Positions 22,577-56,386 of a stretch of DNA of 64,000 bases are shown here, piece after piece (within the stretch, counting starts at the first letter, position 1; each line of letters opens with the position of its first letter). The notes under the pieces are model-generated. The model made no database searches. It worked only from the letters and a program-made list of their open reading frames with translations, and was not told the DNA's origin. The DNA lies in assembly GCF_963921235.1 (NCBI RefSeq), contig NC_086097.1, positions 19,532,001 through 19,596,000 on the forward strand, read 5' to 3'. This DNA is from Mobula hypostoma. Its lineage: Eukaryota. The position numbers and the translations under genes are program-made.

Positions 22577-22722
22577 TCTCCCCCTCCCCCCCCAAATGTC
22601 TTAATGAGCTCTTCTTTCAGTTAGTCCTGACGAAGGGTCTCAGCCCGAAATGTCGACTGTACCTCTTCCTAGAGATGCTGCCTGGCCTGCTTCGTTCACC
22701 AGCAACTTTGATGGGTGTTGCT
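22577..22722 (+). mobile_element. Short PLE pseudo-LTR insertion with hammerhead
   Basis: 13-bp TSD gggataaaacaga at 22564-22576 and 22723-22735. Confidence 0.85.
22623..22658 (+). ncRNA. Minimal type I hammerhead ribozyme motif
   Basis: AGUC-CUGACGA-A-GGGU(CUCA)GCCC-GAAA-UGUC^GACU. Confidence 0.8.
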
Positions 22723-23665
22723 GGGATAAAACAGAATCGAGGTTTGCAGATATGAATTCAGTGGGGCAGGAACAAGCTGAAACAGTGGGTCTACCTGGAC
22801 AAGTGGGTTTGTGGATTTTGGGTAGGGGGTCGAAACGGAAGTACGGGGTGTGGGAACTATGAGGTTGGTGACGGTGGATGGGAGATCCCCAGAGTCAGTA
22901 AGTTTGGTGATGGTGTGGGAGACAATGGCCGGGTGTTCCTTAGTGGGGTCCTGTTCGAGGGGCAAGTAAGAGGAGGTGTCTGAGAGTTGTCAGCAAGGTA
23001 GAGGTCGGTACATCAGACTTTTACAGCACCTCCCTTATCTGCGGGTTTGATGGTGAGGTTATGAGCAGTGCGGAAGGAGTGGAGAGCCGAGCGTTCGAAA
23101 GGAGTGAGCTTGGAATAGGAGAGAGGCATATTAGAATCAAGACAGTTAATATCCCGTTGAAAAGGTCCAGAGCAGGCAGAAGACAAGGGCAGGATGTCCA
23201 GGAAGGGAAGGAGGGTTGAAAATGGGAGGAGGGTTCATCGGTACAGGGAGTCCTTGCCAAAGAAATAGAGACGGAAGCAATGGAAGAAGAGCTCAGCGTC
23301 GTGGCAGGCGCGGAACTCACTGAGTTGTGGACGCAGGGGGACAAAAGTGAGGCCCTTACTGATGACAGTCAAGTACAGCATATTGCTGCATGCACAAGTA
23401 CAGTGAGATACAGTTGTAGTGAAAAACTTGCTTGTTGCAGCACCACAGGCATGTAGGTACAGACAACACAGAGAAAAGTACATAAATTGCACAAATTGAT
23501 GGGCGTATAGTGTTTGCCTTCATTAGTGGGAGATTGAATTCAAGGTAACGTTGCAGCTCTATAAAACCATGGTTGGACCACACTTCTGTTCAGTTAGTCA
23601 CTTCTGGTCGCCTCGTTGTAGAAAAGGTGTGGGGGGTCTAGAGAAGGTCCAAAGGAGATTTGCAC

Positions 23666-24646
23666 CTCAAACACGATAAATCCTGCAGATGCTGGAGATC
23701 CAGAGCACCACACAAAATATGCTGAAGGAACTCAGCAGCTCAGGCAGCATCTGTGGAAATGAACAAACCATCGACATTTCGAGGGAAGACCCTTCTTCAG
23801 AATTGTAAAGGAAGGGGGGAAAGACAGCAGAATAAAAAAAGGTGGAGGGAGGAGGATAGCTGGACTCAAAGGTGAAGCCAGGTGGGTAGGAAAGGTAAAA
23901 GGCTGGAAAGGAAGGAATCTGATATAGAGGAGAGAGGATTATAGGAGAAAGGGAAGAAGGAGGGGCACCGGGGGGAGGTGATAGGCAGGTGAGAAGATGC
24001 AAGAGGACAGAATGGGGAATAGAAGAAAAGATGAGGGGGAAGGGGAAATGTTTCTACCGGTCGGAGAAATCGATATTCATGCCATCGGGTTGGAGGCTAC
24101 CCAGACGTAATATAAGGTGTTGCTCCTCCACCCTGAGAGTGACCTCATGACACGAGAAGACTGCGGACTGATGTCACAACTGGAATGGGAATTGGAATTA
24201 AAATGTTTCACCACTGAGAAGTTTCACTTCTGGCAAATAGAACGGATGGAGCAGTCCCAGAGTTCCTCTACATTGGCATTCCTCTACAATATCCATTTCT
24301 CCTTCCAGTAAAAAAATTTCACCTCCTCCTCCCATTCCCCATTCTGGCCTCTTACCTCTTTTCACCTGCCCATCACCTCCTCGGTCTTCTCCTCCGTTCC
24401 TTTTACCTGTGGTCCACTCTCCTATCAAATTCCTTCCTCTGTAGCCCTTTACCTCTCCTATCCACCCAACTTCACCCATCACCTTCTAGCAATCCTCCTT
24501 CCCTTCCCCCACCTTTTTATTCTGACATCTTCCCCTTCCTTTCCAGTGCTGTAGAAGGGTCTCAGCCTGAAACGTCAACTGCTTGTTCATTTCCATAAAT
24601 ACTGCCTGACCTGTTGAGGTCCCCCAGCATTGTGTGTGTATGTTGT
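23666..24646. mobile_element. Large inverted pair of PLE 3' ends
   Basis: Minus copy ~23666-24255 faces plus copy ~24280-24646; both carry decayed hammerheads. Confidence 0.8.
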
Positions 24647-24649
24647 TTT

Positions 24650-25045
24650 ACTAGGATGCTGTCTGGATTAGAGAGCATGTCTTATGAGGGTAGGTTGAGC
24701 GAGCAAGGATTGGAAAGAGAGGTGGCTTGACTGGTATACAAAATGATAAGAGCCCTAGATTAAGAGGACAGCCAGAGACATTTTCCCAGGGTAGAAATAG
24801 CTAATACCAGGAAGCAGAATTTTAAGGTGATTGGAGAAAAGTATAGTGTGGATGTCAGAGATATAAAAAACAAAGTGGCAGCTGCATGGAATGAACTGCC
24901 AAGGGTGGTAGTAAAGACAGATACATTAGAGACAGTTAGGAAACTCTTAGGCACCTGGATGATACAAAAATGGAGGTCTATGCAGGAGGAAAGGGTTAGA
25001 TTGATCTTAGGGTAGGTTAAAAGGTCAGAAGAACATCATGGGCCA
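24650..25045 (+). mobile_element. CR1 3' fragment
   Basis: aggatgctgtctggattagagagcatgtcttatgag..tggaatgaactgcca. Confidence 0.7.
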
Positions 25046-25062
25046 ATCAACATTAACTATAA

Positions 25063-25298
25063 GCACAAAATAACCTGCAGATGCTGGGATCAAAGCAACA
25101 CTCACAACACGCTGGAGGAACTCAGCAGGTCGGGCAGGATCCGTGGAAACAATGAGTCGACGTTTCGGGCCTTTTGATAGGGCCTCTGCCCCTTCCCTCT
25201 TCAGTCCTGACGAAGGGTTCCGGCACGAAACGTCGACTCATCGTTTCCACGGATGCTGCCCGACCTGCTGAGTTCCTCCAGCGTGTTGTGAGTGTTGC
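25063..25298. mobile_element. Fold-back PLE pseudo-LTR element
   Basis: 73-bp inverted arms at 25095-25167 and 25226-25298 (2 mismatches); hammerhead at 25203-25238. Confidence 0.88.
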
Positions 25299-27371
25299 AA
25301 CATTAATTATGTAAGTGAATCTCAAGTTAACATCTATGTAATTTGCAAATGAACTTCCTTTGACTTTGAAGGGATTTCTCAGGAAGGTACCGGGTCTAAA
25401 GCCCCTGGGCTCCAGGGAGAGGTTGGCCACACTGGATCTTTATTCCCTGAAGTACAGGAGGATTCACTGTTTCCTCATACTAGATAAAATCATGAGAGTT
25501 CCAGATAATGTGGATGGTCAGAGTCTTTTCCTCAGAATTGTGCAGTCCAAAACTAGAGTCAGAGATACATGTCAAGAAGGAAGAGATTTTAAAGAGACCC
25601 GAGAGGCAATTTCTTTACGCAAATGGCAAACTGGTTTATTATTGTCAGGTGTACTGAGTTACAGTAAAAAAAACCTGTCTTGCCGACCATCCATATAATC
25701 ATTATAGTGGTGCATTGAGAAACCGAGTGCAGAATAAAGTGTGGTAGCACTTTGTAGGTAGACAGGTAAACAGGTAGACAGTAAAGTTCAAGGTCACAAC
25801 ATTGTCCATTGTGTAGTCAAGACCCAACATACTAGCCAGTACCTGGAATGAGGAAGTGGTGGAAGTGGGTACAAATGTAACATTTATGAGGGATTTCGAT
25901 AGATACATGGAGGGGAGGGGCTTGGAGAGTTATGGGCTAAATGCACCCAAATGGTCAAGCAAGGGAAATATTGTGGTCAGTATAGACCAGTAGGGCAGAA
26001 GGGCCTGTTCTCATGCTGTGTTATTTTATGACTCCAGTGAGTGGACTCTGCATTGACTTCATACAAAGACCAAAACGGCACAGGTAAGATCTCAAGGTCC
26101 TGTGCAACCTCAGGAAAATGTCCTTGACTGCAGGAAGGGCCAATGCCCAGGTATTTAACGCTTGGCTGAGAAGTTTAAGACGCTGGTTTAAAAAAAACAC
26201 AGAATCAGAGATTATAACAGGGAGATCTGTTGGGCCTTTCCTGCGGGTGTCTAACCCCTTCCCTGGACAGGTTTGGTCAGTGAGTCTGACCGAAACCTGG
26301 GCTCATTAACGTTTACAGAACCCTCCGTTCTTTCCTTCCACACGCCCTTCTCTGAGATGCCCTGCATCCTAGCCCAAACACACGTGCAGGCGCACACACT
26401 CACTCAGGCACACGTTCCCTTCCTCTGTATCCTCCCCAGCCAAAACACACACTGGGGGCACTGCACCTCTCGTTTTACGTCCTCTCTCGCCGTTTTCAGA
26501 GGGTTCCCCAAAACCTTCAAGCCGGATCCTTGCTGTTTCGGGAAAGCACTCCCCACCCCCCCCCCCCGCCCCACCGTCTCCCGCTCGAACGGGAATCTCC
26601 AGCCGGCGCCGAGTGGCAAACTGGCCGTTCTATGGATTACATTTGCTTCAAACTGAACAAGCAGCTGAAGATTTAACCCGGAGCAGTGAGAGATCTTTTC
26701 ATTACACGCGTGGAGAAATTCATCAAGGATTCTTGTTGGATGGGGTCTGCCCGGCAGCCAGGACAGATTTATCGTTCCGGAAACTTAAGAGTTAAAAGAC
26801 AACATCACAATAAAGTCGACAGGCATGGGAAGATCACCCAAGTCACAGCGCCCGCACCTAATAAAACCCCACCGTTGAACCCAATCTTCACTTGTGACCT
26901 GGTTGTAAATCTCCGTGGAGAAATTGACAGTGAAATTTGTATTGAAAGTTTTTTAAAGTTAAAGTAGTCTGTTCAGTATCCTTTAAAAAAAACTCACGGG
27001 ACAGAGAGTCTGAGTTCCCAGCCAGTGCTGGAATCTCATTGGTTAATAATATTTGGATGGGTTAATTGCATTTAACTAAAACCGGACGGTCAAATTCTCC
27101 GCAAGTAAGCAAACTGCGATCAATGCCATTAGGGTCATCCGTTCCCACAAGTTATAAACATTCCAGACGCATTTTGCCTTCGGGATTCCACCAAACAAGG
27201 CAACCGTACCTAATGTTTTAGTACAAGCCGAATGTAAGGGGAGAGTTTCCCAAAACACCCCCACGCTACCTCTTTGTTTAACAACAATGTTTGAACGCCA
27301 CAGGCGCTGTCCCACCACCAGCTCTTGGGATGTTTGTTTCCCTTGAGTTCGGTCCTTTAGAAAGTAATTAC

Positions 27372-27700
27372 ACTCACCTCAAATTAAATCAGCTCCCACA
27401 TAGAGTTAACGCGGGTGGCGAGGGTGTAGGTCTGCGTTTCCCCTTCGCTGGGTCTCTTGCCGTTGTGCCGTGGTTCAGACCAGTACCAATTTAAGACTTG
27501 AGCGGAGATTCCCAATTCTGGAGCCTTCCAATCTAATGAGAGAATGAGAGGCGAATCAGAGCCGTGTCAGACCCCGCCCCCACAAGGAAATGGTCAGTCT
27601 GAGAGCCCCCCCCCCTCCACACACACACACACGCACACACACATACACTTCAGGATGAAAGGGCTCCGCAGTCTGATGTTAGGTCAATTCCAATGGTAGG
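27372..27700 (-). promoter_or_regulatory. Candidate vrtn promoter and non-coding first exon
   Basis: Repeat-free CpG-containing block. Minus-strand donor GAG|GTGAGT (plus actcac at 27372-27377), CCAAT at 27486, 27512, 27528 and 27690, GC box ccccgccccc at 27572-27581. Confidence 0.55.
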
Positions 27701-27859
27701 TGATAATAAGGGTGACATCAGTCAGGGCCAAGTGATGTGTGGTGCTTCTCCGCAGAATTTCTCCAATTTCTCCTCACCCGTGGAAGGGCGGAATCTCAAG
27801 GAACTTTTGTCATGTTGATGTAAAGTCCGTCTTGTAAGGAGGAGGTGCAAGTGTTGTGC

Positions 27860-28142
27860 AGGATGAATGGTCTGCCTACCTTGAACAGCAACATACGATA
27901 TTTTTGTCAGACCATACTGTGGGGTTCTTTTGCTACTGCGGGGTTGGGTGAGGAAGCCCTCAACTGTTGTTGTAGTACAGTATACCACCCCAAGGAGAGA
28001 CACGAGAGGGCCGCAGTGTAGGGATGTAATGGAACAGTACTGGAAGTATTGACTATGAATGTACGAGTGAAAATGCATTGCATGGTTTAATCTTGTCATT
28101 ATTTTTTATTATGAATAAAGTTTATTTTGATAAAAATAAAAA
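27860..28142 (+). mobile_element. Possible L1/Tx1-type LINE 3' end
   Basis: Ends tatgaataaagtttattttgataaaaataaaaa (polyA signal plus A-rich tail). Confidence 0.4.
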
Positions 28143-28624
28143 TGTGTGTTCTTGCAAATATGAAAAATATATGTATAGCTTTGGAAAAAAGAAATTGAAG
28201 AAATCATTTTTTTTTCCTTTTTAAATTACTAACTATATAACATTTTTCTAAGTTTTTACATTATTGCAGCTTTAGGAAACTTAAACATGCATTGACTGAG
28301 TTTGAAGATATTCTGGAATTTCACGGAATGTCGTGCAGGCCCTTCAGCCCAACTAGTCCCTGCTAGTCCTGCATCTTCAAAGTTCAAAGTGCATACATGT
28401 CACCACATACAATACTGAGATCCATTTTTCTGCAGGCATACCCTGCAAATCTCTGCTCCTAATTATCCATTCTCTAACAATATTGACCCTTGCTTATCCA
28501 AGAAAAAGTTGTGAATTCAAATCCCACACTAAGGGTTTCAGCACTCACTGTGGTGATGGTGATCTGAAGATGTTTTGCTCTGTGACTGTGTTAACAATAT
28601 AGGGCATTCTTTGCAAAGACACTC

Positions 28625-28890
28625 CTTCAGTGACCAAGAGGACATGGCCACAATCATCATGAGGAAACGTTGGAGAGGGATTGGGCACGTGATGAGAGGA
28701 GAGGCCAACTCCATCATCTAGACAGCACTTCATGGGACTCCTGAAGGGCGGAGGAAATGTGAGAGACCAAAGACGACTTGGCACCGTACCACAGAGGCCG
28801 AAATGAACCACACCTGGGACATGATGGAGAAGATGGCCAAGGACTGACAGAGATGGAGGACCTTCATTTCTGCCCTAAGTAGACAGTAAC
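28625..28890 (+). mobile_element. RTE LINE 3' fragment
   Basis: RKRWR.IGHVMR..TALH.TPEGRRK..RPKTTW.. Confidence 0.75.
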
Positions 28891-28919
28891 TTTGCAAAGA
28901 CAGAAAATACCGAAGTTAG

Positions 28920-29665: not shown

Positions 29666-29921
29666 TCGTTTTTTTTTGGGAGCCATTTTAATTCTGTATG
29701 ATAGTCGAAACTTCAGGTAAACAACATTCAAAATTGACGTTGTTGATGGAAAAGTTGGTAAAATGTACATTCTTTTCTATAGGAATGTTAAGATTTTTGC
29801 TTTCACATTACAAATTACTCTCAACTCCAGCGTGGCATTGGCAACATATAGGAGGGAGATTAAAAGTCTGGTTGAATGGTGAAGCAACAACAACCTTTCA
29901 ATCAAAATCAGCAAAACCAGA

Positions 29922-30385
29922 GCACACTGAAAACAGAATACTGCAGTGCTACATTTATTCTATCCTGACTTATGGAAGTGAATACTGGACCATTTCTCCA
30001 GCAATGGAAAAGAGACTAGAAGTAGCTGAATTATGGTTCTACAGGAGAACGTTAAAAATATCATGGACCACGCACACATCAAATGAAGAAGTTCTCAGAA
30101 GAGCCCAAGCAGTTCGATCACTCATACCAACAATAAGAGAAAGACAACTCAGATTCCTGGGACACATCATGCGGAAAGATGAACTAGAAAAACTCATACT
30201 CTCTGGAAAGATTGAGGGGAGAAAACCTAGAGGAAGACCTCGGCTTATGCACATCAAAAGCATAGCCAGGTGGCTGCACATCAAGGAAATGGAAGTCATC
30301 CAAAAAACGAAAGATAGATCTATATGGAAAACCATGGTCACCAAAGTCCGCATCGGATATGGTACCTGGACAGACGGACAGACAG
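29922..30385 (+). mobile_element. RTE (BovB-like) LINE 3' part, inserted in a Rex-like fragment spanning ~29860-30900
   Basis: ILTYGSEYWT..RRTLKISW...SNEEVL..RQLRFLGHIMR..GKIEGRKPRGRPR; (gaca)n-like tail. Confidence 0.88.
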
Positions 30386-31056
30386 GAGGAAGAAGATGGA
30401 GGTCCATGAGCCAGTGCTCATTAGGGGATGAGAGGTGAAGAGAGTCAGTAACTTTAAATTCCTTGGTGTTATCATATCAGAGGATCTGTTTTGGGACCAG
30501 CACATAGGTACCATCACAAAGAAGGCAGGGTAGCACCTCTCTATAAGGGTTTGCACAGATTTGTCACTTTGTCAAACGTCAAGAGATCTGAATCAGGTTT
30601 TATGTCACTGTTATACTACATGGTGAAATTTGTGCACAATAGAGAGTATCCTGACTGGGGCTTCCCTGCAGGGTTCAGTTTAGGGGGGTGGTGGAGGGAA
30701 TGGGAAGGGAATAACATAAAAAAATGGATCATTCAGTGAAATTTTTCGCTTACTGTGAGTAAGCCTACAAAAAGTGTTAGGTCCATCACAGGCAAAGTCC
30801 CCCCCAGCACTGAGCACGTCTACATGGAGTGCTGTCACAGGAAAGCAGCATCCAGCATCAAGGACAGCCACCTTTCAGGCCATGCTCCCACCTCGCTGCT
30901 GCCTTGAGGAGGTGGTGGTGAGCCACTCATTGCCCATGTCCTGTGACAGTGGATGGACAGTCCGAGGCAGAATACGCCGTACATTTTATAGTCTTCTTTC
31001 AAAGTTCAAAGTAGATATCAAAGAACGTGTACACCACTTTGCAGAAGTCTCAGTCC

Positions 31057-31599: not shown

Positions 31600-32061
31600 A
31601 TTATATTCCGTCTGGGTAGCCTCCAACCTGATGGCATGAACATTGACTTCTCTAACTTCCGCTAATGCCCCACCTCCCCCTCGTACCCCATCGGTTATTT
31701 ATTTATATACACACATTATTTCTCTCTCTCTCCTTTTTCTCCCTCTGTCCCTCTGACTATACCCCTTGCCCATCCTCTGGGTTTTCCCCCCATCCCCCTT
31801 TTCCTTCTCCCTGGGCCTCCTGTCCCATGATCCTCTCGTATCCCTTTTGCCAATCACCTGTCCAGCTCTTGGCTCCATCCCTCCCCCTCCTGTCTTCTCC
31901 TATCATTTTGGATCTCCCCCTCCCCCTCCCACTTTCAAATCTCTTACTAGCTCTTCCTTCAGTTAGTCCTGACGAAGGGTCTCGGCCTGAAACGTCCACT
32001 GTACCTCTTCCTAGAGATGCTGCCTGGCCTGCTGTGTTCACCAGCAACTTTGATGTGTGTT
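31600..32061 (+). mobile_element. PLE 3' end / pseudo-LTR with hammerhead (31965-32000)
   Basis: 13-bp TSD gtcactaaatgtc at 31587-31599 and 32062-32074; close match to 55028-55480. Confidence 0.9.
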
Positions 32062-32342
32062 GTCACTAAATGTCGTACTATTTATTACAAATTACTATAC
32101 ACTATATGCACATTGCGTATTTAGACGGAGACGTAATGTAAAGGTTTTTATTCCTCGTGTGTGTGAAAGATGTAAGAAATAAAGTCAATTCAATTCAATT
32201 CTTCCTCTGTCTTCCCACTGATTTGATCACAGATTATTTTCTCCAACTGTCTTGTTGGACTGCTGACTTAGTTACACATTCACCCTTAAGTTTGTGGTTT
32301 CCTTTGCAAGTTTGCTAAGATTCCTTTCCAGCTCCATTGGTT

Positions 32343-33875
32343 ACATAGAACATAGAACATAGAATAGGCCCTTCAGCCCTTCACATTACAGGCCCTTCAG
32401 CCTACAAAGTTGTGCCGACCCTGAAACCCTGCCTCCCATATAACCCCCCACCTTAGATTCCTCCATATACCTGTCTAGTAGTCTCTTAAACTTCACGAGT
32501 GTATCTGCTTCCACACTGACTCAGGCAGTGCATTCCACGCACCAACCACTCTCTGAGTAAAAAACCTTCCTCTAATATCCCCCTTGAACTTCCCACCCCT
32601 TACCTTAAAACCATGCCCTCTTGTATTGAGCAGTGGTGCCCTGGGGAAGAGGCGCTGGCTATCCACTCTATCTATCCCTCTTATTATCTTGTACACCTCT
32701 ATCATGTCTCTTGTCATCCTCCTTCTCTCCAAAGAGTAAAGCCCTAGCTCCCTTAATCTCTGATCATAATGCATACTCTCTAAAACAGGCAGCATCCTGG
32801 TAAATCTCCTCTGTACCCTTTTCAATGCTTCCACATCCTTCCTATAGTGAGGTGACCAGAACTGGACACAGTACTCCAAGTGTGGCCTAACCAGAGTTTT
32901 ATAGAGCTGCATCATTACATCGCGACTCTTAAACTCTATCCCTCGACTTATGAAAGCTAACACCCCATAAGCTTTCTTAACTACCCTATCTACCTGTGAG
33001 GCAACTTTCAGGGATCGCCTCACATTTCTCCGGGTTGAACTCCATCTGACACTTCTCAGCCCACTTCTGAATCCTATCAATGTCTCTCTGCAATCTTCAA
33101 TAATCCTCTACACTGTCTACAACACCACCAACCATTGCGTCATCTGCAAACTTGCCAACCCGCCCTTCTACCCCCACATCCAGGTCGTTAATAAAAATCA
33201 CGAAAAGTAGAGGTCCCAGAACAGATCCTTGTGGGACACCACTAGTCACAATCCTCCAATCTGAATGTACTCCCTCCACCACGACCCTCTGCCTTCTGCA
33301 GGCAAGCCAATTCTGAATCCACCTGGCCAAACTTCCCTGGATTCCATGCCTTCTGACTTTCTGAATAAGACTACCATGTGGAACCTTGTCAAATGCCTTA
33401 CTAAAATCCATATAGATCACATCCACTGCACTACCATCATCTATATGCCTGGTCACCTCCTCAAAGAACTCTATCAGGCTTGTTAGACATGACCTGCCCT
33501 TCACAAAGCCATGCTGACTGTCCCTGATCAGACCATGATTCTCTAAATGCCTATAGACCCTATCTCTAAGTATCTTTTCCAAAAGCTTTCCCACCACAGA
33601 CGTAAGGCTCACTGGTCTATAATTACCCGGACTATCCCTACTACCTTTTTTGAACAAGGGAACAACATTCGCCTCCCTCCAATCCTCGGGTACCATTCCC
33701 GTGGACAAGGAGGACATAAAGATCCTAGCCAGATGCTCAGCAATCTCGTCCCTCGCCTCATGGAGCAGCCTGGGGAATATTCCGTCAGGCCCCGGGGACT
33801 TATCCATCCTAATGTATTTTAACAACTCCCACACCTCCTCTCCCTTAATATCAACATGCTCCAGAATATCAACCT
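32343..33875 (-). mobile_element. CR1 LINE ORF2 (well preserved, internal deletion)
   Basis: [53 protein letters not shown]; (ttctatg)n tail. Confidence 0.95.
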
Positions 33876-34279
33876 CATGTTGGACCCATGGTGCTCAAAT
33901 TATGTCCCTGCAGATCCGGAACTGGGCACCACCCCGCTATTCATGAATCCACCTTCTGAAAGCTCTGGGCTACACACTTATTTTAAACTTCTGCTGTCCT
34001 TCTGGTGAAGGTAACCCTCCATCCCGTGAGTTCCCATTGCATACATACATTTCAAAGTGAGTCATACATCCCTCCAAATGAGAACCACTGCCTGTCTACC
34101 CATTCAGGAGGCCACCGACTGCCAATACAATCTCCAAATAAACAGACACTACCCATATGTAATCACAGGTGAGCAAACCCCATCTATATATATGCCCAAG
34201 AAAAGATCTGTTACCCATATAGACCTCTGCTGTCAGGGCTTTGACTCAGCAGCTACATGCTCCATTTAGTCCATGACAG

Positions 34280-34962: not shown

Positions 34963-35850
34963 ATCAGAATCAGAATCAGGTTTATTATAACCGGCATGTG
35001 ACAGAAAATTTGTTAACTTAGCAGTTCAATTCAATACATAATCTAGCAGAGAGAAAAAAATATATAAAATAAAACATAATAAATAAACAAGTAAATCAAT
35101 TACATATATTCAATAGATTATTTTTAAAAATGTGCAAAAGCAGAAATGTCCAAAGCTCCAAAGTCCATTTAGGTATGAGATGGCAGAGGGGAAGAAGCTG
35201 TTCCTGAATCGCTGAGTGTGTGCCTTCAGGCTTCTGTATCTCCTACCTGATGGTAACAGTGAGAAAAGGGCATGCCCTGGGTGCTGGAGGTCCTTAATAA
35301 TGGACGCTGCCTTTCTGAGACACCACTCCCTAAAGATATCCTGGGTATTTAGTAGGCTAGCGCCCAAGATGGAGCTGACTAGATTTACAACCTTCTGTAG
35401 CTTCTTTCGGTCCTGTGCAGTAGCCCCTCCATACCAGACAGTGATGCAGCCTGTCAGAATGCTCTCCACAGTACAACTATAGAAGTTTTTGAGTGTATTT
35501 GTTGACATGCCAAATCGCTTCAAACTCCTAATAAAGTATAGCTGCTGTCTTGCCTTCTTTATGACTACATCAACATGTTGGGACCAGGTTAGATCCTCAG
35601 AGATCTTGACAACCAGGAACTTGAAGCCGCTCACTCTCTCCACTTCTGATCCCTCTGTGAGGATTGGTATGTGTTCCTTCGTCTTACCCTTCCTGAAGTC
35701 CACTATCAGCTCTTTCGTCTTACTGATGTTGAGTGCCAGGTTGTTGCTGCGGAACCATTCCATTCGTTGGCATATCTCACTCCTGTACGCCCTCTCGTTC
35801 GTTACCACCTGAGATTCTACCAACAATGGTTGTATTGTCAGCAAATTTAG
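34963..35850 (-). mobile_element. Rex/Babar-like LINE 3' part
   Basis: 244-aa ORF nearly identical to the protein encoded at 62164-62881. Confidence 0.9.
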
Positions 35851-36284
35851 ATTAATCTTAAAGTAAGCTAAAAATTCAGCACAACATCATGGGTCAAAGG
35901 GCCTCTACACTGCCGTACTGTTCTATGTTCTATCTTCACTTGCCCTATTTCTTACCGTAGCCCCACAAGTTAATTTGCCACAATGCCAATTCAATATGGC
36001 ACCATTGCCAAATGAACTCCAACTGTCTGCCTCCATCGCCAGATGAACATTTACCAGTAAATAATACATAAACAGACAGGTCATACAAGTAGGAAAAAAA
36101 TGTGTGTCCCTCACTTCCAGACAAGTAGAGAATCTGAGGCAGAATGTGCATTTTATACTCTAACGTTCTTTATTCATTTCTTAATACTTAAGTATTTACA
36201 CTAATAATGCTTAAAACTATTAAATCAATCGATAAAACAAGTTAAAAACAAAACACACAGAAGTTTTTTGAGCTACTGGTAAAT

Positions 36285-36668
36285 GCCTCCCTCCTTCACC
36301 GTTCCCCATTCCTGATTCTCTCTCTCGACTATCTCCATATCTACTCATCATCTCCTTTCCTTTCTTCCATGTACTTCTACCCTCTCCTGTCAGGTTCCCT
36401 CATCCTCCAGCCCCTTTATCTCTTTCACCCAGCTCTTTCCTTCACCCACTCCCCCCTCCCAGTTTCACCAATCATCTGCCGCCTTGTGCTTCTTCCTCCC
36501 CTTCTTGCTCTGACTGCTCATCTCCTTTCCCAGTCCTGATGAAATGTCTCAGCCCAAGACCTTGACTGTTGATTCATTTCCATGGATGCTGCCTGAGCTG
36601 TTGAGTTCCTCCAGCATTCTGTGCTCTTTGCCCTGGATTTCCAGCATCTGCAGATCTTCTCGTGTTTG
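36285..36668 (+). mobile_element. PLE pseudo-LTR fragment
   Basis: Pyrimidine-rich body, decayed hammerhead at ~36532-36567, gatgctgcctg..gagttcctccagcat end. Confidence 0.78.
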
Positions 36669-37776
36669 TGGAATAAAACAAGTTGGTTTGGATAGTGAGA
36701 TGGCTGGCTAAATATGTAAATAATGTTGAACTATCCAGTCCCAATCTTCTTGTCCCAGACATAGGGGTTTCCTCTTGATGTTTGAACTCTCTCATGTCCC
36801 GGACATGGAGGGTACTCTCTTTACGACTGGTTCATCTCTGTGTAGATGTCACACCAGTGTCGGCTTCTAGTCCCCACCCCCCACCTCCTGGACTTATATC
36901 CTCCTTGGATAGTTATTTATTCACTTGATGAGTTTACCCTTTGCTTGATATTTCAGTCTGGACATCACTAATCAGTGCAGTTTCAGTGCTGGATTGATTA
37001 TCTGTTTGCAACTTATCAGCAATAAGTGTCTTCATCTGTCTGTCCACTGATGCGATCACTGACTGTTCCTCCGACTGTCCTGTCAGACCATTGGCTTAAT
37101 CACATACTGTTCCCAAACACTTCCCTTCACAAAATGTTTTGTGTCATTGTCCCATTTACTATGTTGCCTTCCCAGCCCAATTGGGTTTAGCTCTGAGGCT
37201 CAACTCACACCTGATTGGGTGCAGAATGGGGCACTGCCCCTCCATTCACAAATCTATAATCTGGAAGTACCAGGCTACATCCCCACCATACACTTCCTGT
37301 CAACTCTTTGACCACTCGACCACTGTTTGGTGCTAACAACAGAAAACTAAAATAAATAAATAGATTTGTATCATTGTGAAGCAAGTTCATTCACCATGTT
37401 GTAAGGTCATATATGAGCAGGGTGAACCATTCAACATAGTTAACCAGGAACACCATCTAACGTATTGTGCAATCTCCTAGCCAAACACTATCAAGATAAA
37501 TTTATTAATTATGAAGAAAATCTCAGACTGAGAGAGTACATAAATAATTAAAACAGTTGGAGCACAGAGGTGGTATGTTGGGCATATATCTTTTCCCTGA
37601 GGACAAAATCTCCTATGTTGCAATTCCCACATGTGTAGTAGCCCTGGTAACCCACAGATAACCTATCCCGCAACTTAGTCTGGATCTAACCTGGATCCAC
37701 AACACCTGCTTGCTAGTCAAGAAGACACTGCAATGTCTACACTTTCTGAGGAGATTGAGACAGGCAAGGCTCCCTG

Positions 37777-38148
37777 CCTCCAACCTGATGGCATGAACAT
37801 TGACTTCTCTAACTTCCGTTAATGCCCCACCTCCCCCTCGTACCCTATCCGTTATTGCTCATCCTCTGGGCTTACCCCCTCCCCCTTTCTTTCTCCCTAG
37901 GCCTCCCGTCCCATGATCCTCTCATATCCCTTTTGCCAATCACCTGTCCAGCTCTTGGCTCCATCCCTCCCCCTCCTGTCTTCTCCTATCATTTTGTATC
38001 TCCCCCTCCCCCTCCAACTTTCAAATCTCTTATTATCTCTTCTTTCAGTTAGTCCTGACGAAGGGTTTTGGTCCAAAACTTCGACTGTACCTCTTCCTAT
38101 AGATGCTGCCTGGCCTGCTGCGTTCACCAAAAACTTTTATGTGTGCTG
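37777..38148 (+). mobile_element. PLE 3' end / pseudo-LTR
   Basis: Colinear with 31620-32061; mutated hammerhead at 38051-38086. Confidence 0.85.
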
Positions 38149-38313
38149 CCCCCATTCTAATAGCTTTCTAGAGGAGCACCATCGACAGTGCCTTGTCCGG
38201 CTGCATAATTGTGTGGTAGTGAAGCTGCAAGACCCTACAGAGGACAGTAAAGACCACGGGGAGGATCCCCACGGTCCTCCCCCTTATTTGTGACATTTAC
38301 CAAAAGCATTGCA

Positions 38314-42903: not shown

Positions 42904-43483
42904 CATCTTCCTTTGTACTTTTATTTTAATTTTGCGAATGTATATTAATTTTGTCTTGCTGTATCTTAATGTATATTAATTTTGTACTGCTGTCATAAAG
43001 CAACAAATTTCAGAGTAAGCCAGTGATAATACACCTGATTCTAATTCTGACACCAAACAAGGGAAAGCCACAAGGTTAGAAAGATTAAGTCAGTGGACTG
43101 ACAAGACAACCAAAGGAGCAATCTGTGATCACATTAGTGGAGAGACAGATGAAGACATTTAGTACTAGTAAGTTACAAACAGATAATCAATCCAGCACTG
43201 AAACTGCACTGATTAGTGACATCCAGACTAAGATATCAAGCAAAGGTTAAATTCATCAAGCAAATAATCATCTCTCCAAGGAGGATATAAGATGGGACTG
43301 TATAGCCACACTGCTGCGACATCTCCAGGAATTCAATCTGCTCTGTCTTGGACGCAAAGGATAGACCATCAAGGGTCTAGAGGAAGCCCACACATCAGGG
43401 ACAAGGACATCCGCTCTGTGTATCCAACCAGTCATCTTGTACATCTTCTACAGGTAATGTCCAAACTAGCTTGTTTTATTGTA

Positions 43484-43697
43484 CAACACACATGAAATGC
43501 TGGAAGAACTCAGCAGATCAGGCAGAATCTATGGAGGGAAATGAACAGTTGACATTTTGGACCAAAGTCCAACTGAAGGGTCTCAGCCCAAAACATTGTC
43601 TCTTCATTTCTCTCCACAGATGCTGCCTGGTCTGCAGAGTTCCTCCACCATTTTGTGTGTGTGTTGCTCAAGATTTCCAGCACCTGCAGAATCTCCT
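43484..43697. mobile_element. Inverted pair of PLE pseudo-LTR ends
   Basis: gaactcagcagatcaggcagaatct...agatgctgcctggtctgcagagttc inverted arms. Confidence 0.8.
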
Positions 43698-44224
43698 GCA
43701 TCAATAACTTGTTTTATTGGAAGTTTTATTAGGATTAAATGGTATTGGTGAGTGCACCTGTGCACTAAGAAGTGAATTAAGAAAGTTGGAGCATACAATG
43801 TTTATTCTGCCTCAGACGCTCTATCTGTACTGAGTGTTGCCACAGGAAACACATGTGACTCCCTCCTCCCTCCCTCAGAGCTATCAAACTGTGGCTTCGC
43901 TGCTTCCTGCATCTAACACATTGTGGCAGGAGCTGAAATGCTCTAAGGCTGGAGCAGGTAGATGAGTTACAGAATTATCGAAAATGTGTTAAACTAAGTA
44001 AGCCAAATATCTACAGTAACTGCAAAGAGTCCAACCCTGTCTCCACACCCTGCTCAATCTTCTCTGATGGGATGTAAAATTGAGGATTAACCTACCTTAC
44101 TGCTCAAAGAAGAACGAGTGTCTTGGAGTCTTGGAGTGACCAACCACAGTATTCTAGAAGGCAATAAATATGCAGTATGTGAAATATTTGTGCCAGATGA
44201 TAGATTTCCTATTCCACGGTTATG

Positions 44225-46813: not shown

Positions 46814-46851
46814 TAATGCACAGTACATGTGACAAATAAAACTAACCTTAT

Positions 46852-47430
46852 AGCAACACACACAAAGTGCTGGAAAGACTCTGCAGGCCAGGCAGCATCT
46901 ATTGAAAAGAGTTAACAGTCAACATTTCGGCCCAAAACCCTTCAGCAGGACTGGAAACGAATATTAGAAGTTAGAGCAAGAAGGTGGCGGGACGGGAGGA
47001 AGAAGTACAAGGTGGTAGGTGATAGGTGAAGCTGGGAGAGGGAGAAGGTGAAGTAAGGATCTGGGAAGCTGCTAGGTGAAAAAGATAAAGAGCTGGAGAA
47101 GGGGGAATCTGATAGGAGAGGGTAGATGGCCATGAAAGAAGGGGAAGGGGGAGGAGCACCAGAGGGATGTGATGGGCAGGTGAGAAGATGAGGTGAGAGA
47201 GGGAAATGGGAATGGGAATGGTGATGGGGGGAGCAACTACTGGAAATTCAAGAGGTCAATGTTCATATTATCAGTTGGAGGCTACCCGAACGGAATATAA
47301 GGTGTTGCTCCTCCAGCCTGAGTGTGGCTTCATCACAGCAGTAGAGGAGGCCATGGAATGACATGTCAGAATGGGAATGGGAAGTAGGTTTGAAGTGGGT
47401 GGCAACTGGGAGATCTTCCTTTTTCTGCCA
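46852..47430 (-). mobile_element. PLE 3' fragment
   Basis: DLPVATHF..TSHSHSDM..GLLYC..EATLRLEEQHLIFR.GSLQ plus pseudo-LTR. Confidence 0.85.
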
Positions 47431-47607: not shown

Positions 47608-47868
47608 TATCAGAATCAGGTTTAACATCACCGACGTATGTTGTGAAATTTGTTGTTATATGGCAGCAGTACATTGCAATACACAATAATAATAACTGAA
47701 TCACAGTAAATATATATGTAAAATAGTTAAATAAGTAGTGCAAAAGTAAAAATAAAAAGGTAGTGATGTAGTGCTCATGGGTTCAATGTCCGTTCAGAAA
47801 TCTGATGGCAGAGGGGAAGAAGCTGTTCCTGAATTGTTGAGTGTGTGCCTTCAGGTCCCTGTACCTCC
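47608..47868 (-). mobile_element. Rex/Babar-like LINE 3' end
   Basis: Matches 4594-4890. Confidence 0.8.
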
Positions 47869-49004: not shown

Positions 49005-52000
49005 TTTGTGTCTGTGTGTACTATCATTACAATATCCACTGTGTGTGACTGTACGTACTATCATTACTATACAGGATGTGCTGTGCGTGACTGTATGTAC
49101 TATCATTACGATATCCACTGTGTGTAACTGTACGTACTATCATTACTATACAGGATGTGCTGTGCGTGACTGTATGTACTATCATTACGATATCCACCAT
49201 GTGTGACTGTACGTACTATCATTACTATACAGGATGTGCTGTGCGTGACTGTATGTACTATCATTACGATATGTGCTGTGTGTGACTGTACGTACTATCA
49301 TTACTGTATGTGCTGTGTGTCTGTGTGTACCATCGTTACGGTATTTACTGTGTGTGACTGTATGTACTATCATTACGATATGTGCTGTGTGTGACTGTAT
49401 GTACTATCATTACGGTATGTGCTGTGTGTGACTGTATGTACTATCATTACGATATGTGCTGTGTGTGAGTGTACGTACTATCATTACGATATGTGCTGTG
49501 TGTGACTGTATGTACTATCATTACGATATGTGCTGAGTGTGACTGTATGTATTATCATTACTGTATGTGCTGTGTGTGACTGTATGTACTATCATTACGA
49601 TTTGTGCTGTGTGTGACTGTATTTATTATCGTTACGGTATGTGCTGTGTGTGACTGTATTTATTATCGTTATGGTATGTGCTGTGTGTGACTGTATGTAC
49701 TATCATTACTATACAGTATGTGCTGTGTGTGACTGTACGTACTATCATTACTATACAGGATGTGCTGTGTGTGACTGTACATACTATCATTACTATACAG
49801 GATGTACTGCATCTGACTGTATGTACTATCATTATAATATGTGCTGTGTGTGACTGTATGTACTATCATTACGATTTGTGCTGTGTGTGACTGTATGTAC
49901 TATCATTACTGTATGTGCTGTGTGTGACTGCATGTACTATCATTACTATACAGGATGTGCTGCGTGTGACTGTATGTACTCTCGTTACTGTATGTGCCGT
50001 GTCTGACTGTATGTACTATCGTTACTGTATGTGCTGTGTGTGACTGTATGTACTATCATTACGGTATGTGCTGCGTGTGACTGTATGTACTCTCGTTACT
50101 GTATGTGCTGTGTGTGACTGTATGTACTCTCGTTACTGTATGTGCTGTGTGTGACTGTATGTTCTATCATTACGATATGTGCTGTGTGTGACTGTATTTA
50201 TTATCGTTACGGTATGTGCTGTGTGTGACTGTATGTACTATCATTACTATACAGGATGTGCTGTGTGTGACTGTATGTACTCTCGTTACTGTATGTGCTG
50301 TGTGTCTGTGTGTACCATCGTTACGGTATTTGCTGTGTGTGACTGTATGTACTATCATTACGATATGTGCTGTGTGTGACTGTATGTACTATCATTACGG
50401 TATGTGCTGTGTGTGACTGTATGTACTATCATTACGATATGTGCTGTGTGTGACTGTACGTACTATCATTACGATATGTGCTGTGTGTGACTGTATGTAC
50501 TATCATTACGATATGTGCTGAGTGTGACTGTATGTATTATCATTACTGTATGTGCTGTGTGTGACTGTATGTACTATCATTACGATTTGTGCTGTGTGTG
50601 ACTGTATTTATTATCGTTACGGTATGTGCTGTGTGTGACTGTATTTATTATCGTTATGGTATGTGCTGTGTGTGACTGTATGTACTATCATTACTATACA
50701 GTATGTGCTGTGTGTGACTGTACGTACTATCATTACTATACAGGATGTGCTGTGTGTGACTGTACATACTATCATTACTATACAGGATGTGCTGCATCTG
50801 ACTGTATGCACTATCGTTACAATATGCGCTGTGTGTGACTGTATGTACTATCATTACGATATGTGCTGTGTGTGACTGTACATACTATCATTACAGTATG
50901 TGCTGTGTGTGACTTACGTACTATCATTACGGTATGTGCTGTGTGTGACTGTACATACTATCATTACGGTATGTGCTGTGTGTGACTGTACTTACTATCA
51001 TTACGATATGTGCTGTGTGTGACTGTACGTACTATCATTACGGTATGTGCTGTGTGTGACTGTATGTACTATCATTACGATATATGCTGTGTGTGACTGT
51101 ATGTACTATCGTTAGGGTATGTGCTGCACGTGACTGTACATACTATCATTACGATATGTGCTGTGTGTGACTGTATGTACTATTTACAATATGCGCTATG
51201 TGTGACTGTATGTTCTATCATTACTATACAGGATGTGCTGCATGTGACTGTATGTTACTGTATGTGCTGTGTCTGACTGTATGTACTATCGTTACTGTAT
51301 GTGCTGTGTGTGACTGTATGTACTCTCGTTACTGTATGTGCTGTGTGTGACTGTATGTACTATCATTACTATACAGGATGTGCTGCGGGTGACTGTATGT
51401 ACTCTCGTTACTGTATGTGCTGTCTCTGACTGTATGTACTATCGTTACTGTATGTGCTGTGTGTGACTGTATATACTATCATTACGGTATGTGCTGCGTG
51501 TGACTGTATGTACTCTCGTTACTGTATGTGCTGTGTGTGACTGCATGTACTCTCGTTACTGTATGTGCTGTGTGTGACTGTATGTACTATCGTTAGGGTA
51601 TGTGCTGCACGTGACTGTACGTACTATCATTACAATATGTGCTGTGTGTGACTGTATGTACTATTTACGATATGCACTGTGTGTGACTGTATGTACTATC
51701 ATTACGATATGTGCTGCGTGTCTGTATGTACTATCATTACAATATGCGCTGTGTGTGACTGTATGCACTATCGTTACGATATGCGCTGTGTGTGACTACG
51801 TACTATCATTACGATATGTGCTGTGTGTGACTGTACGTACTATCATTACGGTATGTGCTGCACGTGACTGTACATACTATCATTACGATATGTGCTGTGT
51901 GTGACTGTATGTACTATTTACAATATGCGCTATGTGTGACTGTATGTACTATCATTACTATACAGGATGTGCTGCATGTGACTGTATGTACTCTCGTTAC

Positions 52001-53615
52001 TGTATGTGCTGTGTCTGACTGTATGTACTATCGTTACTGTATGTGCTGTGTGTGACTGTATGTACTCTCGTTACTGTATGTGCTGTGTGTGACTGTATGT
52101 ACTCTCGTTACTGTATGTGCTGTGTGTGACTGTATGTACTATCATTACTATACAGGATGTGCTGCGGGTGACTGTATGTACTCTCGTTACTGTATGTGCT
52201 GTCTCTGACTGTATGTACTATCATTACTGTATGTGCTGTGTGTGACTGTATATACTATCATTACGGTATGTGCTGCGTGTGACTGTATGTACTCTCGTTA
52301 CTGTATGTGCTGTGTGTGACTGCATGTACTCTCGTTACTGTATGTGCTGTGTGTGACTGTATGTACTATCGTTAGGGTATGTGCTGCACGTGACTGTACG
52401 TACTATCATTACAATATGTGCTGTGTGTGACTGTATGTACTATTTACGATATGCACTGTGTGTGACTGTATGTACTATCATTACGATATGTGCTGCGTGT
52501 CTGTATGTACTATCATTACAATATGCGCTGTGTGTGACTGTATGCACTGTTACGATATGCGCTGTGTGTGACTACGTACTATCATTACGATATGTGCTGT
52601 GTGTGACTGTACGTACTATCATTACGGTATGTGCTGCACGTGACTGTACATACTATCATTACGATATGTGCTGTGTGTGACTGTATGTACTATTTACAAT
52701 ATGCGCTGTGTGTGACTGTATGTACTATCATTACTATACAGGATGTGCTGCGTGTGACTGTATGTACTCTCATTACTGTATGTGCTGTGTGTGACTGTAT
52801 GTACTATTATTACGGTATGTGCTGCGTGTGACTGTATGTACTCTCGTTACGGTATGTGCTGTGTGTGACTGTATGTACTATCGTTACTGTATGTGCTGTG
52901 TGTGACTGTATGTACTCTCGTTACTGTATGTGCTGTCTCTGACTGTATCTACTATCGTTACTGTATGTGCTGTGTGTGACTGCATGTACTCTCGTTACTG
53001 TATGTGCTGTGTGTGACTGTATGTACTATCGTTAGGGTATGTGCTGCACGTGACTGTACGCACTATCATTACGATATGTGCTGTGTGTGACTGTATGTAC
53101 TATTTACGATATGCGCTGTGTGTGACTGTATGTACTATCATTACAATATGTGCTGCGTGTCTGTATGTACTATCATTACAATATGCGCTGTGTGTGACTG
53201 TATGCACTATCGTTACGATATGCGCTGTGTGTGACTACATACTATCATTACGATATGTGCTGTGTGTGACTGTACGTACTATCATTGCGGTATGTGCTGT
53301 GTGTGACTGTACGTACTATCATTACGATATGTGCTGTGTGTGACTGTACGTACTATCATTACGGTATGTGCTGTGTGTGACTGTATGTACTATCATTGCG
53401 GTATGTGCTGTGTGTGACTGTACGTACTATCATTACGATATGTGCTGTGTGTGACTGTACGTACTATCATTGCGGTATGGGCTGTGTGTGACTGTATGTG
53501 CTATCGTTAGGGTATGTGCTGTGTGTGACTGTATGTACTATCGTTAGGGTATGTGCTGTGTGCGACTGTATGTACTATCGTTAGGGTATGTGCTGTGTGT
53601 GACTGTATGTACTGT
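49005..53615. repeat. Satellite array, 37-bp unit TGTGTGACTGTATGTACTATCATTACGATATGTGCTG, with 42-bp and shorter variants
   Basis: Roughly 120 tandem units; higher-order duplication evident from repeated ORF translations. Confidence 0.98.
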
Positions 53616-54089
53616 GTTTTTCACCTTGGCCCCAGAGGAAGGATGCTTCGTTTAGCTGTCTACATGTGTATGGTTGAATGACAATTAAACTTGAATTTGA
53701 ATTTGAGTTTGAGTCCTATCATAGAAGCTGAGGAAATTAACTTAAACTAATTAAATAAATCTAGAATTTAAAAGCTGGTGAGATTAATATGGACCATGGA
53801 ACGACTTGATTGTTGTTAAAACCTGTCAGGGTCCTTTACTCAGCAAAGGAAGGTTACTTTGTGAGCTTCATGTGAGCAAGGTATGCTATTGTACCCATGT
53901 GTAGGTGACAATAAGCTAACCTGAAACTGAGATCTGCAGCCCTATACGTAACTCCATACCAACTACCACATTGTTGGCTCCAGCCTCTGAAACTGAAGCA
54001 GCTCTGCAAGCCACCCAGTTCTGTACCATTTAGGAATGGGTTTCTTACCATCGAATGCCCATATCCATGAGCAATTAGTAAGTAGTTTT

Positions 54090-54305
54090 AAACACAAGAT
54101 TCTGCTGATGCTGGTCATTTTGAGCAACACTCAAAAAAATTCTAGAGGAACTCAGAAGGTCAGGCAGCATTTATGAAGGGGAATTAACTGTCTACGTTTC
54201 AGGTTGAGACCTTTCATCAGAACTGGCAGTCCTGATGATGAGTCTCGGCCTGAAACATTAGCAGTTTATTTCCCTCCATGGATGCTTGCCTGACTTGCTG
54301 AGTTC
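54090..54305. mobile_element. Inverted PLE pseudo-LTR pair with back-to-back hammerheads
   Basis: Minus motif at 54189-54224, plus motif at 54228-54263. Confidence 0.8.
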
Positions 54306-55027
54306 ATATAAATAAACTGTCAACATTTACATTGTGAATGCTGCTACTTCACTGTAGCCCATTTCAACTGAAGGATTGGCAATCACTTTCCAGAATTTTG
54401 GAGAGAGTGCAGGCATTCCTGCTAATTACTGCAGCATTCCCAAACTGAATAGTAACCATTCCATTGTAAAACGACCTGAAGTGAGCCCTTCGAGTCAGTT
54501 CCAGCATTCCTCAGCAGATTAGAGCGGACATCAGGAAGATGATCAGACCTGTGCATAACAAAGGCATTGTGCATTTTCTGATCACATTTAGCACATCTCA
54601 GGATTGTCCAGACCCTGTACAGCACACAAAGGAGATTAAGAACTGATAACAGAGACAGGGTGGTTTCAGCTTTATTTTGGCCATGATATTAGAGTGATGG
54701 GGCTGTATTTGGAATCCTGGGACTTGTAAGGGCATGCATTGTCACACAGGGGGTTTCTGTTGAACGTGGAATGAATCATTGGTTCAGACACAACTGGAAT
54801 ATTGCTTCCAAGTCTGGTCAGCTCACTTCAAGGAGGATGTGAATACAATAAAGAGGGTGCAGGAACAGAAATACTGGATGATTCAAGGATGAGTTATTTG
54901 TCTGCACAAGTTGACAAGAAGATGTATGGCATGCTTGCCTTTATTAATCAAGGCATTGAGTTCAGGAGTCAGCAAGTTATGTTGGAGTTCTATAAAAATC
55001 CGGTTAAGTCACACCTGGAGGATAGCA

Positions 55028-56386
55028 ACACACATAAAAGTTGCTGGTGAACGCAGCAGGCCAGGCAGCATCTCAAGGAAGAGGTGCAGTCGACGTTTCA
55101 GGCTGAGACCCTTCGTCAGGACTAACTGAAGGAAGAGTGAGTAAGGGATTTGAAAGTTGGGGGGGGAGGGGGAGATCCAAAATGATAGGAGAAGACAGGA
55201 GGGGGAGGGATGGAGCCAAGAGCTGGATAGGTGATAGGCAAAAGGGATACGAGAGGATCATGGGACAGGAGGTCTGGGAAGAAAGACGGGGGGGGGAACT
55301 CAGAGGATGGGCAAGGGGTATATTCAGAGGGACAGAGGGAGAAAAAGGAGAGTGAGAGAAAGAACGTGTGTATAAAAATAAGTAACAGATGGGGTACGAG
55401 GGGGAGGTGGGGCATTAGCGGAAGTTAGAGAAGTCGATGTTCATGCCATCAGGTTGGAGGCTACCCAGACGGAAGATAAGGTGTTGTTCCTCCAACCTGA
55501 GTGTGGCTTCATCTTTACAGTAGAGGAGGCCATGGATAGACATGTCAGAATGGGAATGGGATGTGGAATTAAAATGTGTGGCCACTGGGAGATCCTGCTT
55601 TCTCTGGCGGACAGAGCGTAGGTGTTCAGCAAAGCGGTCTCCCGGTCTGCGTCAGGTCTCGCCAATATATAAAAGGCCACATCGGGAGCACCGGATGCAG
55701 TATATCACCCCAGTCGACTCACAGGTGAAGTGTTGCCTCACCTGGAAGGACTGTTTGGGGCCCTGAATGGTGGTAAGGGAGGAAGTGTCAGGGCATGTGT
55801 AGCACTTGTTCCGCTTACACGGATAAGTGCCAGGAGGGAGATCAGTGGGGAGGGATGGGGGGGACGAATGGACAAGGGAGTCGCGTAGGGAGCGATCCCT
55901 GCAGAATGCAGAAAGGGGAGGGAGGGAAAGATGTGCTTAGTGGTGGGATCCCGTTGGAGGTGGCGGAAGTTACGGAGAATAATATGTTGGACCCAGAGGC
56001 TGGTGGGGTGGTAGGTGAGGACCAGAGGAACCCTATTCCTAGTGGAGTGGCGGGAGGATGGAGTGAGAGCAGATGTACGTGAAATGGGGGAGATGCGTTT
56101 AAGAGCAGAGTTGATAGTGGAGAAAGGGAAGCCCCTTTCTTTAAAAAAGGAAGACATCTCCCTCGTCCTAGATTGAAAAGCCTCATCCTGAGAGCAGATG
56201 CAGCGGAGACGGAGGAATTGCGAGAAGGGGATGGCGTTTTTGCAAGAGACAGGGTGAGAAGAGGAATAGTCTAGATAGCTGTGAGAGTCAGTAGGCTTAT
56301 AGCAGACATCAGTGGATAAGCTGTCTCCAGAGAAAGAGACAGAAAGATCTAGAAAGGGGAGGGAGGTGTCGGAAATGGACCAGGTA
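55028..56386 (-). mobile_element. Young 5'-truncated Penelope-like element inserted in a CR1 remnant
   Basis: 15-bp TSD acctggaggatagca at 55013-55027 and 56387-56401; FFKERGFP..RVPLVLTYHP; GIY-YIG region; pseudo-LTR. Confidence 0.93.
55088..55123 (-). ncRNA. Minimal type I hammerhead ribozyme motif
   Basis: AGUC-CUGACGA-A-GGGU(CUCA)GCCU-GAAA-CGUC^GACU; predicted cut between plus 55092 and 55091. Confidence 0.82.

Follow-up and report, generated by a model that had tools for sequence, protein, structure and literature searches.

Probable minimal hammerhead motifs at the 3' ends of truncated Penelope-like elements in Mobula hypostoma

The motifs and the element that carries them

A 64,000-nucleotide stretch of the Mobula hypostoma genome (contig NC_086097.1, positions 19,532,001 to 19,596,000; hereafter the window), which includes the vertnin gene vrtn, contains many copies of a 36-base motif that is very probably the minimal type I hammerhead ribozyme of a Neptune-type Penelope-like element (PLE), left at the 3' end of dead, 5'-truncated copies. 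The original prediction, made from the letters of the window, had placed such motifs in PLE pseudo-long terminal repeats (pLTRs), and this is borne out by the location of the motif in both pLTRs of longer copies found elsewhere in the genome and by its homology to the minimal hammerheads (min-HHR) described in the pLTRs of metazoan PLEs by Cervera and de la Pena in 2014 (PMC4209133).

A search profile built from the five copies that had been named as intact detected 19 motif copies at E < 1e-5 in the window, and the reversed window, used as a control, gave no profile match better than E 0.85. The motif was present, on the predicted strand, at all 16 places listed earlier, the coordinates of the decayed copies being accurate to ~6 bases. 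Three copies were additional (17634-17669(-), 25155-25171(-) and 43547-43565(-)), the last two being 5'-truncated. The density, predicted to be about one copy per 4 kb, was measured as one per 3.4 kb in the window. The background density was one per 6.3 kb (19 copies in 120 kb, from 12 arbitrarily chosen 10-kb stretches). The window is thus about twice as dense as these stretches, with a Poisson p of 0.008 that is overstated since copies come in pairs.

To define the carrier, eight of the longest open frames of the element family (L023 to L030) were retrieved from the 3.48-Gb genome, in which the open reading frame (ORF) remnant at 55741-56409 of the window has 131,456 first-look candidates. 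Full pLTR-ORF-pLTR copies with a unit of ~3.5 kb occur elsewhere in the genome. Three of the eight retrieved copies (L024, L025 and L030) are direct tandems, each of whose pLTRs holds the motif. The distance between the two motifs is 3512-3513 bases in L024 and L025, where the pLTRs are 99% identical and the ORF begins 60-140 bases past the first motif. In L026 and L027, an inverted copy adjoins the 5' end. L024 encodes a reverse transcriptase (RT; PF00078, E 3.6e-5, under the curated cut-off) and, at the C terminus, a GIY-YIG endonuclease (PF01541, E 3.7e-5, above the curated cut-off), with a CX4CxxC linker between them and a CxxC in the endonuclease part. A CX2-5CxxC linker is the mark common to the Neptune and Nematis clades (Craig et al. 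2021, PMC8557442), and the element appears to be of the Neptune type by its anatomy and its host.

Mapped on the L024 unit, the window copies are element 3' ends of ~100 bases to ~2.9 kb with 70-96% identity. Because the motif sits ~65-100 bases before the element 3' end, nearly every insertion, however short, bears it. The traits of endonuclease-positive (EN+) PLEs (partial tandems, inverted truncated copies and a tail) are seen, and back-to-back inverted pairs, a known PLE insertion pattern (PMC8557442), are frequent: genome-wide, 2,008 sites hold a pair within 30 bases, compared with 40 in the control. The exact intact core has 57,914 matches in the genome (28,894 + 29,020; control 0), and a rough extrapolation from the 19 copies in 120 kb gives about half a million relics. 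One young tail (22503-22724) lies in the opposite orientation inside an older PLE (20493-23368), and this nesting therefore gives the relative age of the two families to which the copies belong.

In L024, RT and endonuclease are in two different frames. A C-rich run between them (~55920-55950(-) in the window; 4820-4835 in L024) is a frameshift hot spot. A programmed RT/endonuclease frameshift was rejected as a feature of the family: the C run is prone to slippage, and the RT-endonuclease spacing among 100 copies of an unbiased listing was in frame in 71 (66 full, 5 other) and shifted in 29. Copies out of frame at this run include near-identical young tandems. That all eight long-ORF copies are out of frame is uninformative, because the query used to find them itself bore the shift.

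Structure, decay and conservation of the core

In the consensus, a 4-bp helix I and the CUGANGA box are followed by one additional A and by a second helix, also of 4 bp, that is closed by a loop of four bases; GAAA comes next, and ACGU directly precedes the base at which cleavage would occur. Two peculiarities of the predicted motif were upheld by position-by-position scoring of 83 near-complete copies. The extra A after CUGANGA (between positions 9 and 10.1) is found in 82 of these, a register backed by the A-U pair of the 54189 copy, and helix III is reduced to the palindrome ACGU, with CG at 15.2-16.2 in 63 copies and TG or CA, as expected of CpG decay, in 17.

Nearly all window copies are decayed. 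Eight of the 19 copies keep every catalytic box (CUGANGA, GAAA and UH, arranged as in type I). A loose rule, requiring the boxes and at least three of four pairs in helices I and II and allowing wobble at 15.2-16.2, is passed by seven, and a strict rule, requiring the boxes, both helices and the ACGU palindrome, by 55088-55123(-) only. The prediction that five named cores are intact therefore holds for the boxes, which are kept in all five, and fails for the rest of the motif, which is flawless in 55088-55123 alone. The 22623 copy has AUGU instead of ACGU, 25203 a G.A mismatch within helix II, and 31965 a C.C mismatch adjoining the cleavage site; in 54189 the triplet is GUA and helix I contains an A.A mismatch. 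The four pairs of helix I and four of helix II in the consensus have a pairing probability of ~0.8 in 55088-55123, and a low one in the other four named copies. Among 31 unselected copies, decay was largely of the CpG type, with 32 of 92 changes falling at 6 of the 30 scored positions.

The two source families have different flanks. At 34 of the 36 core positions they share the majority base, the exceptions being N7 and 11.1. Median cross-family identity was 0.50 upstream, 0.81 in the core, and 0.55 and 0.66 downstream (12 and 18 copies, with the young 22623 copy sorted into the wrong family by the rule used). The motif is thus conserved between families despite differing flanks and decays after insertion, which points to selection in the source elements, though with an ascertainment that favours the core.

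Several observations weigh against the hammerhead assignment. The cross-family comparison is biased toward the core, as copies were found with a profile of core plus tail. Compensatory changes are nearly absent: the 83 copies show a single A-U pair at 10.1-11.1, a single T-A in helix I.1 and a single A-T in I.3, so that the structure rests on conservation and homology rather than on covariation. Double changes in the palindrome number 404 genome-wide; among 100 listed, 81 are TA, one is AT and none is GC, and since TA is also produced by CpG decay, these changes neither support nor refute covariation in helix III. The pair at 10.1-11.1 is G.U, not G-C, in the dominant young family (78 of 100 listed, by eye) and in all flanking pLTRs of L023 to L030. 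In the 83 copies, a set rich in young ones, it is G-C in 20 and G.U in 57, and the majority of the older family differs from the young one at this position. A G.U pair here would lower hammerhead activity. Finally, when the window was scanned with Rfam, no family of hammerheads came up at E <= 1; the assignment thus draws on the motif and on published work, not on an Rfam model. The six weak matches of the scan include four to microRNA models, all on one inverted repeat (60985-61081).

Folding predictions bear on how the motif might act. The monomer of the best copy is predicted to form an inactive, rod-like shape, with the core's GACG paired to CGUC. By nearest-neighbour energies, only -3.1 kcal/mol comes from the ACGU duplex, and the double hammerhead, at -11.1 kcal/mol vs -27.0, is not favoured over other dimers, a weak comparison because the model ignores tertiary contacts of the core.

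5' junctions, the vrtn intron and competing explanations

We asked where young-family copies begin, counting genome-wide those in which each of the three preceding bases departs from the element sequence. Starts at the first base of helix I numbered 2,395, as compared with 217 nine bases before helix I, 261 at position 29 and 487 at the cleavage site, four bases downstream of position 29; only these four start positions were sampled, with patterns not perfectly matched in stringency. The 5' ends are hence piled up 9- to 11-fold at the helix I edge. Among 50 listed pairs within 30 bases, 28 have one partner starting no more than 2 bases from this edge (by eye; 34% expected, p 0.0015). The 41 unselected hits include no cleavage-site start. 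Once the three-base filter is taken into account, such starts make up about 2% or less of young copies, and 15 of 100 listed have the sequence that a fold-back through helix I would leave. Because cleavage-site starts are few compared with edge starts, templates seem to be copied mostly uncut; with a count 1.9-fold that of position 29, a small share may have been cut. The edge peak might be caused by stopping or jumping at the boundary of the helix, by RNA ends processed at an acceptor-like site, or by microhomology at AG. Two other causes were discarded: capture of host exons, as five of six edge-starting unselected copies adjoin an inverted partner (by eye), and fold-back through helix I as a general cause, to which only 4 of the first 100 edge sites could be assigned by shared coordinates.

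These counts and published work suggest a sequence of events. In a tandem transcript, two motifs would pair through ACGU, or a protein of the element would assist, and a low-rate cut after GUC would process the element RNA. Single copies would be essentially inactive because helix III cannot form. Reverse transcription would start in the tail, usually pass the uncut motif, and often halt, or jump, on reaching the 5' edge of helix I. We put forward, tentatively and as less than an even prospect, that in the dominant young family the hammerhead fold shapes the insertions: RT passing through an uncut motif and stopping or jumping at the helix I edge with about ten times the frequency of neighbouring positions would leave thousands of complete cassettes and back-to-back pairs, the G.U at 10.1-11.1 damping cleavage. 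If true, the genome would be a fossil record of PLE ribozyme behaviour in vivo, and no natural setting would be better suited to testing for selection on intronic sense-strand ribozymes.

The original prediction had also named vrtn as the host gene and suggested selection against intact sense copies in its intron. The first point was confirmed, the ORF at 10798-12738(-) being vertnin (Atlas scores 0.96-0.97). A contig of another organism, probably from an RNA run, aligns up to 12754 and then continues with 76 unrelated letters, and a contig of another run continues through to 12772; the break matches a predicted intron end (acceptor) at 12755. Aligning contigs of other organisms did not locate the first exon or the upstream intron end; repeats swamped the alignments. 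The region 26200-26800(-) is a candidate promoter and first exon: it is rich in CpG, free of repeats and has a GTGAGT donor near 26403. A DNA contig of another organism is conserved over 26200-26511. As a separate observation on this gene, the Atlas model of the N-terminal part of vertnin (window 10801-11540, residues 2-248) aligns to clusters of OTU-like cysteine proteases, with a TM score of 0.81 by the shorter protein over 231 residues; both sides are predicted, and the match is a lead only.

Taking the intron from 12755 to the candidate first exon (~26400), it holds nine motif copies, five sense and four antisense. An account in which intact sense copies cut the host pre-mRNA, so that selection removes or damages those in introns, could draw on the near-intact copies, which number none of five sense and two of four antisense if 23769-23804 is scored as damaged, on the ~58,000 exact cores that offer many targets for selection, and on the reported depletion of PLE-related retrozymes from Xenopus introns, strand not being compared in the consulted part of that preprint (bioRxiv 10.64898/2026.07.22.740005). 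However, this difference has p = 0.17; by the uniform loose rule the figures are one of five and two of four (p = 0.40), and by the strict rule none of five and none of four. The strand pattern is thus not above chance and lends the claim of selection no support. The near-even split of the copies between strands also argues against host cutting, as do the inactivity of single motifs in PMC4209133 and the unlocated upstream end of the intron. The strand pattern is, moreover, confounded in several ways. Each of 18134/18278 and 25155/25203 is one back-to-back insertion, so that its two members are not independent; the best antisense copy (22623) is of the younger family and the sense copies look older; age and CpG decay explain the damage; and the splice-acceptor-like signal that precedes helix I would penalise sense insertions without any cleavage. 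The one window copy free of defects (55088-55123) is sense to vrtn and lies past the candidate first exon; were that exon further out, it would be intronic and sense. We regard cutting of the host pre-mRNA as improbable.

A second rival, which we consider unlikely although better placed than host cutting, is that the successful young family keeps the motif as a folded RNA signal (for protein binding, as an RT stop or jump point, or as a pLTR intron boundary) and not as a nuclease. The youngest full-length copies, with their G.U at 10.1-11.1, would fit, as would the pile-up at the helix I edge and the scarcity of cleavage-site starts, some of them fold-backs; in addition, catalytic mutants of an Anolis element showed no reduced insertion in vitro (PMC11167929). 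But the catalytic positions (CUGA, GA, GAAA and UH) are all conserved between families, which a pure structure would not need, and the excess of starts at the cleavage site over position 29, within the four positions sampled, leaves room for a small cleaved fraction. That the short copies are instead a separate non-autonomous family, resembling retrozymes or short interspersed nuclear elements and spreading through circular RNA, is very improbable. Many copies are only ~100-150 bases long, several share the start edge, animal retrozymes derive from PLE pLTRs (bioRxiv 10.64898/2026.07.22.740005), and in locus L035 (3967-4147) a short tail is followed ~100 bases on, in the same orientation, by another that starts from the helix I edge; yet the window holds no head-to-tail array of motifs, the 5' ends of other copies continue into pLTR, endonuclease and RT sequence, and the excess of back-to-back inverted pairs is that of PLE insertion. 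The spacing of the tails in L035 would permit a dimer in cis.

Each motif is directly preceded on its 5' side (e.g., 55124-55145(-), L028 and L029) by a branch-point-like TACT(C/A)AC, a pyrimidine tract and an AG ending at helix I. A matching donor for a pLTR intron was not seen: 51 of 52 contexts had no GT at the ORF end, and alignments to contigs of other organisms gave no GT-AG joint among those listed. In the Drosophila virilis Penelope, in contrast, an intron ends at helix I and its splicing has been shown (PMC4209133).

Known systems and remaining features of the window

The motif agrees closely with the min-HHR of PMC4209133, which are likewise of type I, without a helix III loop, with a palindromic 15.2-16.2, a short helix I and an additional nucleotide between 9 and 10.1, and which occur mostly as solitary truncated copies, opposite-strand pairs and tandem copies ~3 kb apart around an ORF. 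The extra A, the ACGU palindrome and the opposite-strand pairs are thus already described there. Cleavage as dimers was proposed in that study, where dimers had low activity in vitro and single motifs none, and the motif was reported in fish elements of the Neptune, Poseidon and Xena types; cartilaginous fishes are not among the hosts named in the consulted part of its text. The differences are a helix II of 4 bp here vs 7-8 bp in Schistosoma, the G.U of most young copies at 10.1-11.1 vs a G-C pair termed highly conserved, and 57,914 exact cores vs ~4,000 motifs in coelacanth and ~9,000 in Xenopus, counts obtained with different search methods.

PAc, a Poseidon element from Anolis carolinensis (Frangieh et al. 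2024, PMC11167929), also has its hammerhead at the pLTR-ORF junction of tandem units and a tail 3' of the motif in which reverse transcription starts, uncut RNA being the main template. PAc belongs to the Penelope/Poseidon clade and its ORF begins in stem II, whereas the ORF here begins well past the motif and encodes a Cys linker; protein-assisted cleavage has been shown for PAc, whereas the present element is known from sequence. Neptune PLEs (PMC8557442) share with it the RT, the CX2-5CxxC linker, the C-terminal GIY-YIG domain, partial tandems forming pLTRs, an inverted 5'-truncated copy beside the pLTR, and the tail. Non-LTR retrozymes (bioRxiv 10.64898/2026.07.22.740005) similarly carry type I hammerheads from PLE pLTRs, and one chondrichthyan genome was included in that survey; they form head-to-tail arrays without an ORF, whereas the copies here are dispersed ends of a coding element.

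We found no direct report of PLE hammerheads in sharks or rays, although the 2014 and 2026 supplements may list chondrichthyan motifs, and none of truncation at a PLE ribozyme or of intron strand depletion of such motifs in a literature search that covered few subscription papers. A 2020 review (PMC7761336) called the in vivo role of PLE minimal hammerheads unknown. The value of the present genome lies in scale and in a testable record: its tens of thousands of young copies allow bench-free tests of start positions against the ribozyme, and of sense-strand depletion of intact vs core-mutated intronic copies. The features of the window are collected in Table 1.

Table 1. Motif copies, PLE remains and vrtn parts in the window (strand ".", both or mixed)
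Feature	Position	Strand	Remarks
Hammerhead motif, older family	463..498	-	Boxes kept; helix II and helix III changed
Vertnin coding exon	10798..12738	-	646 codons; acceptor AG at 12756-12755
Heavily decayed motif	17634..17669	-	Additional to the original prediction
Decayed motif	18134..18169	-	From helix I edge; back-to-back partner of 18278
Decayed motif	18278..18313	+	G12 to A; triplet GUU
Old 5'-truncated PLE	20493..23368	-	Three pieces, 72-81% to young element; RT 3' part, endonuclease remains, pLTR
Motif in old PLE	20594-20629	-	U4 and A6 changed
Short young-family tail inside old PLE	22576..22722	+	Inserted stretch 22503-22724
Motif of young tail	22623-22658	+	Boxes kept; ACGU to AUGU
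Older pLTR pieces, inverted pair	23668..24648	.	
Motif in inverted pair	23769-23804	-	Boxes kept; helices frayed
Motif in inverted pair	24545-24580	+	A6 changed
Back-to-back pair	25075..25279	.	Truncated motif 25155-25171(-) and motif 25203-25238(+), one helix II mismatch
Candidate non-coding vrtn first exon (inferred)	26404..26700	-	CpG-rich; GTGAGT donor near 26403
Young PLE 3' end	31601..32062	+	90% to L024; motif 31965-32000, helix I mismatch beside cleavage site
Decayed motif, older family	36532..36567	+	
Young PLE 3' end	37776..38149	+	Motif 38051-38086, G12 to A
Back-to-back pair	43470..43698	.	Truncated motif 43547-43565(-) and decayed motif 43566-43601(+) from helix I edge
Older PLE 3' end	46852..47427	-	Endonuclease remains; decayed motif 46917-46952
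Back-to-back pair	54089..54307	.	3 bases apart, both from helix I edge
Member of pair	54189-54224	-	GUA triplet; helix II with A-U and U-A pairs
Partner in pair	54228-54263	+	
Young 5'-truncated PLE	55024..56395	-	95.6% to L024 over 1374 bases; RT 3' part, endonuclease, pLTR, tail; strictly intact motif 55088-55123

Other repeats are also present. Broken RT fragments of several kinds, of the long interspersed nuclear element (LINE) type, lie at 58223-59410, 33097-33894 and 16114-16521 (-), at 35110-35886 and 62333-62881, and at 29692-30438. The fragment at 58223-59410 matches PF00078 (E 5e-31) and 35113-35886 matches ALKBH8_N; 29695-30438 had no Pfam match. The inverted repeat at 60985-61081, with arms of ~35 bases and below-threshold microRNA matches on both strands, lies in LINE debris and is probably an inversion junction. 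Finally, a 37-base tandem repeat occupies 49007-53613 with ~123 copies and 85% matches, and includes longer near-identical blocks.

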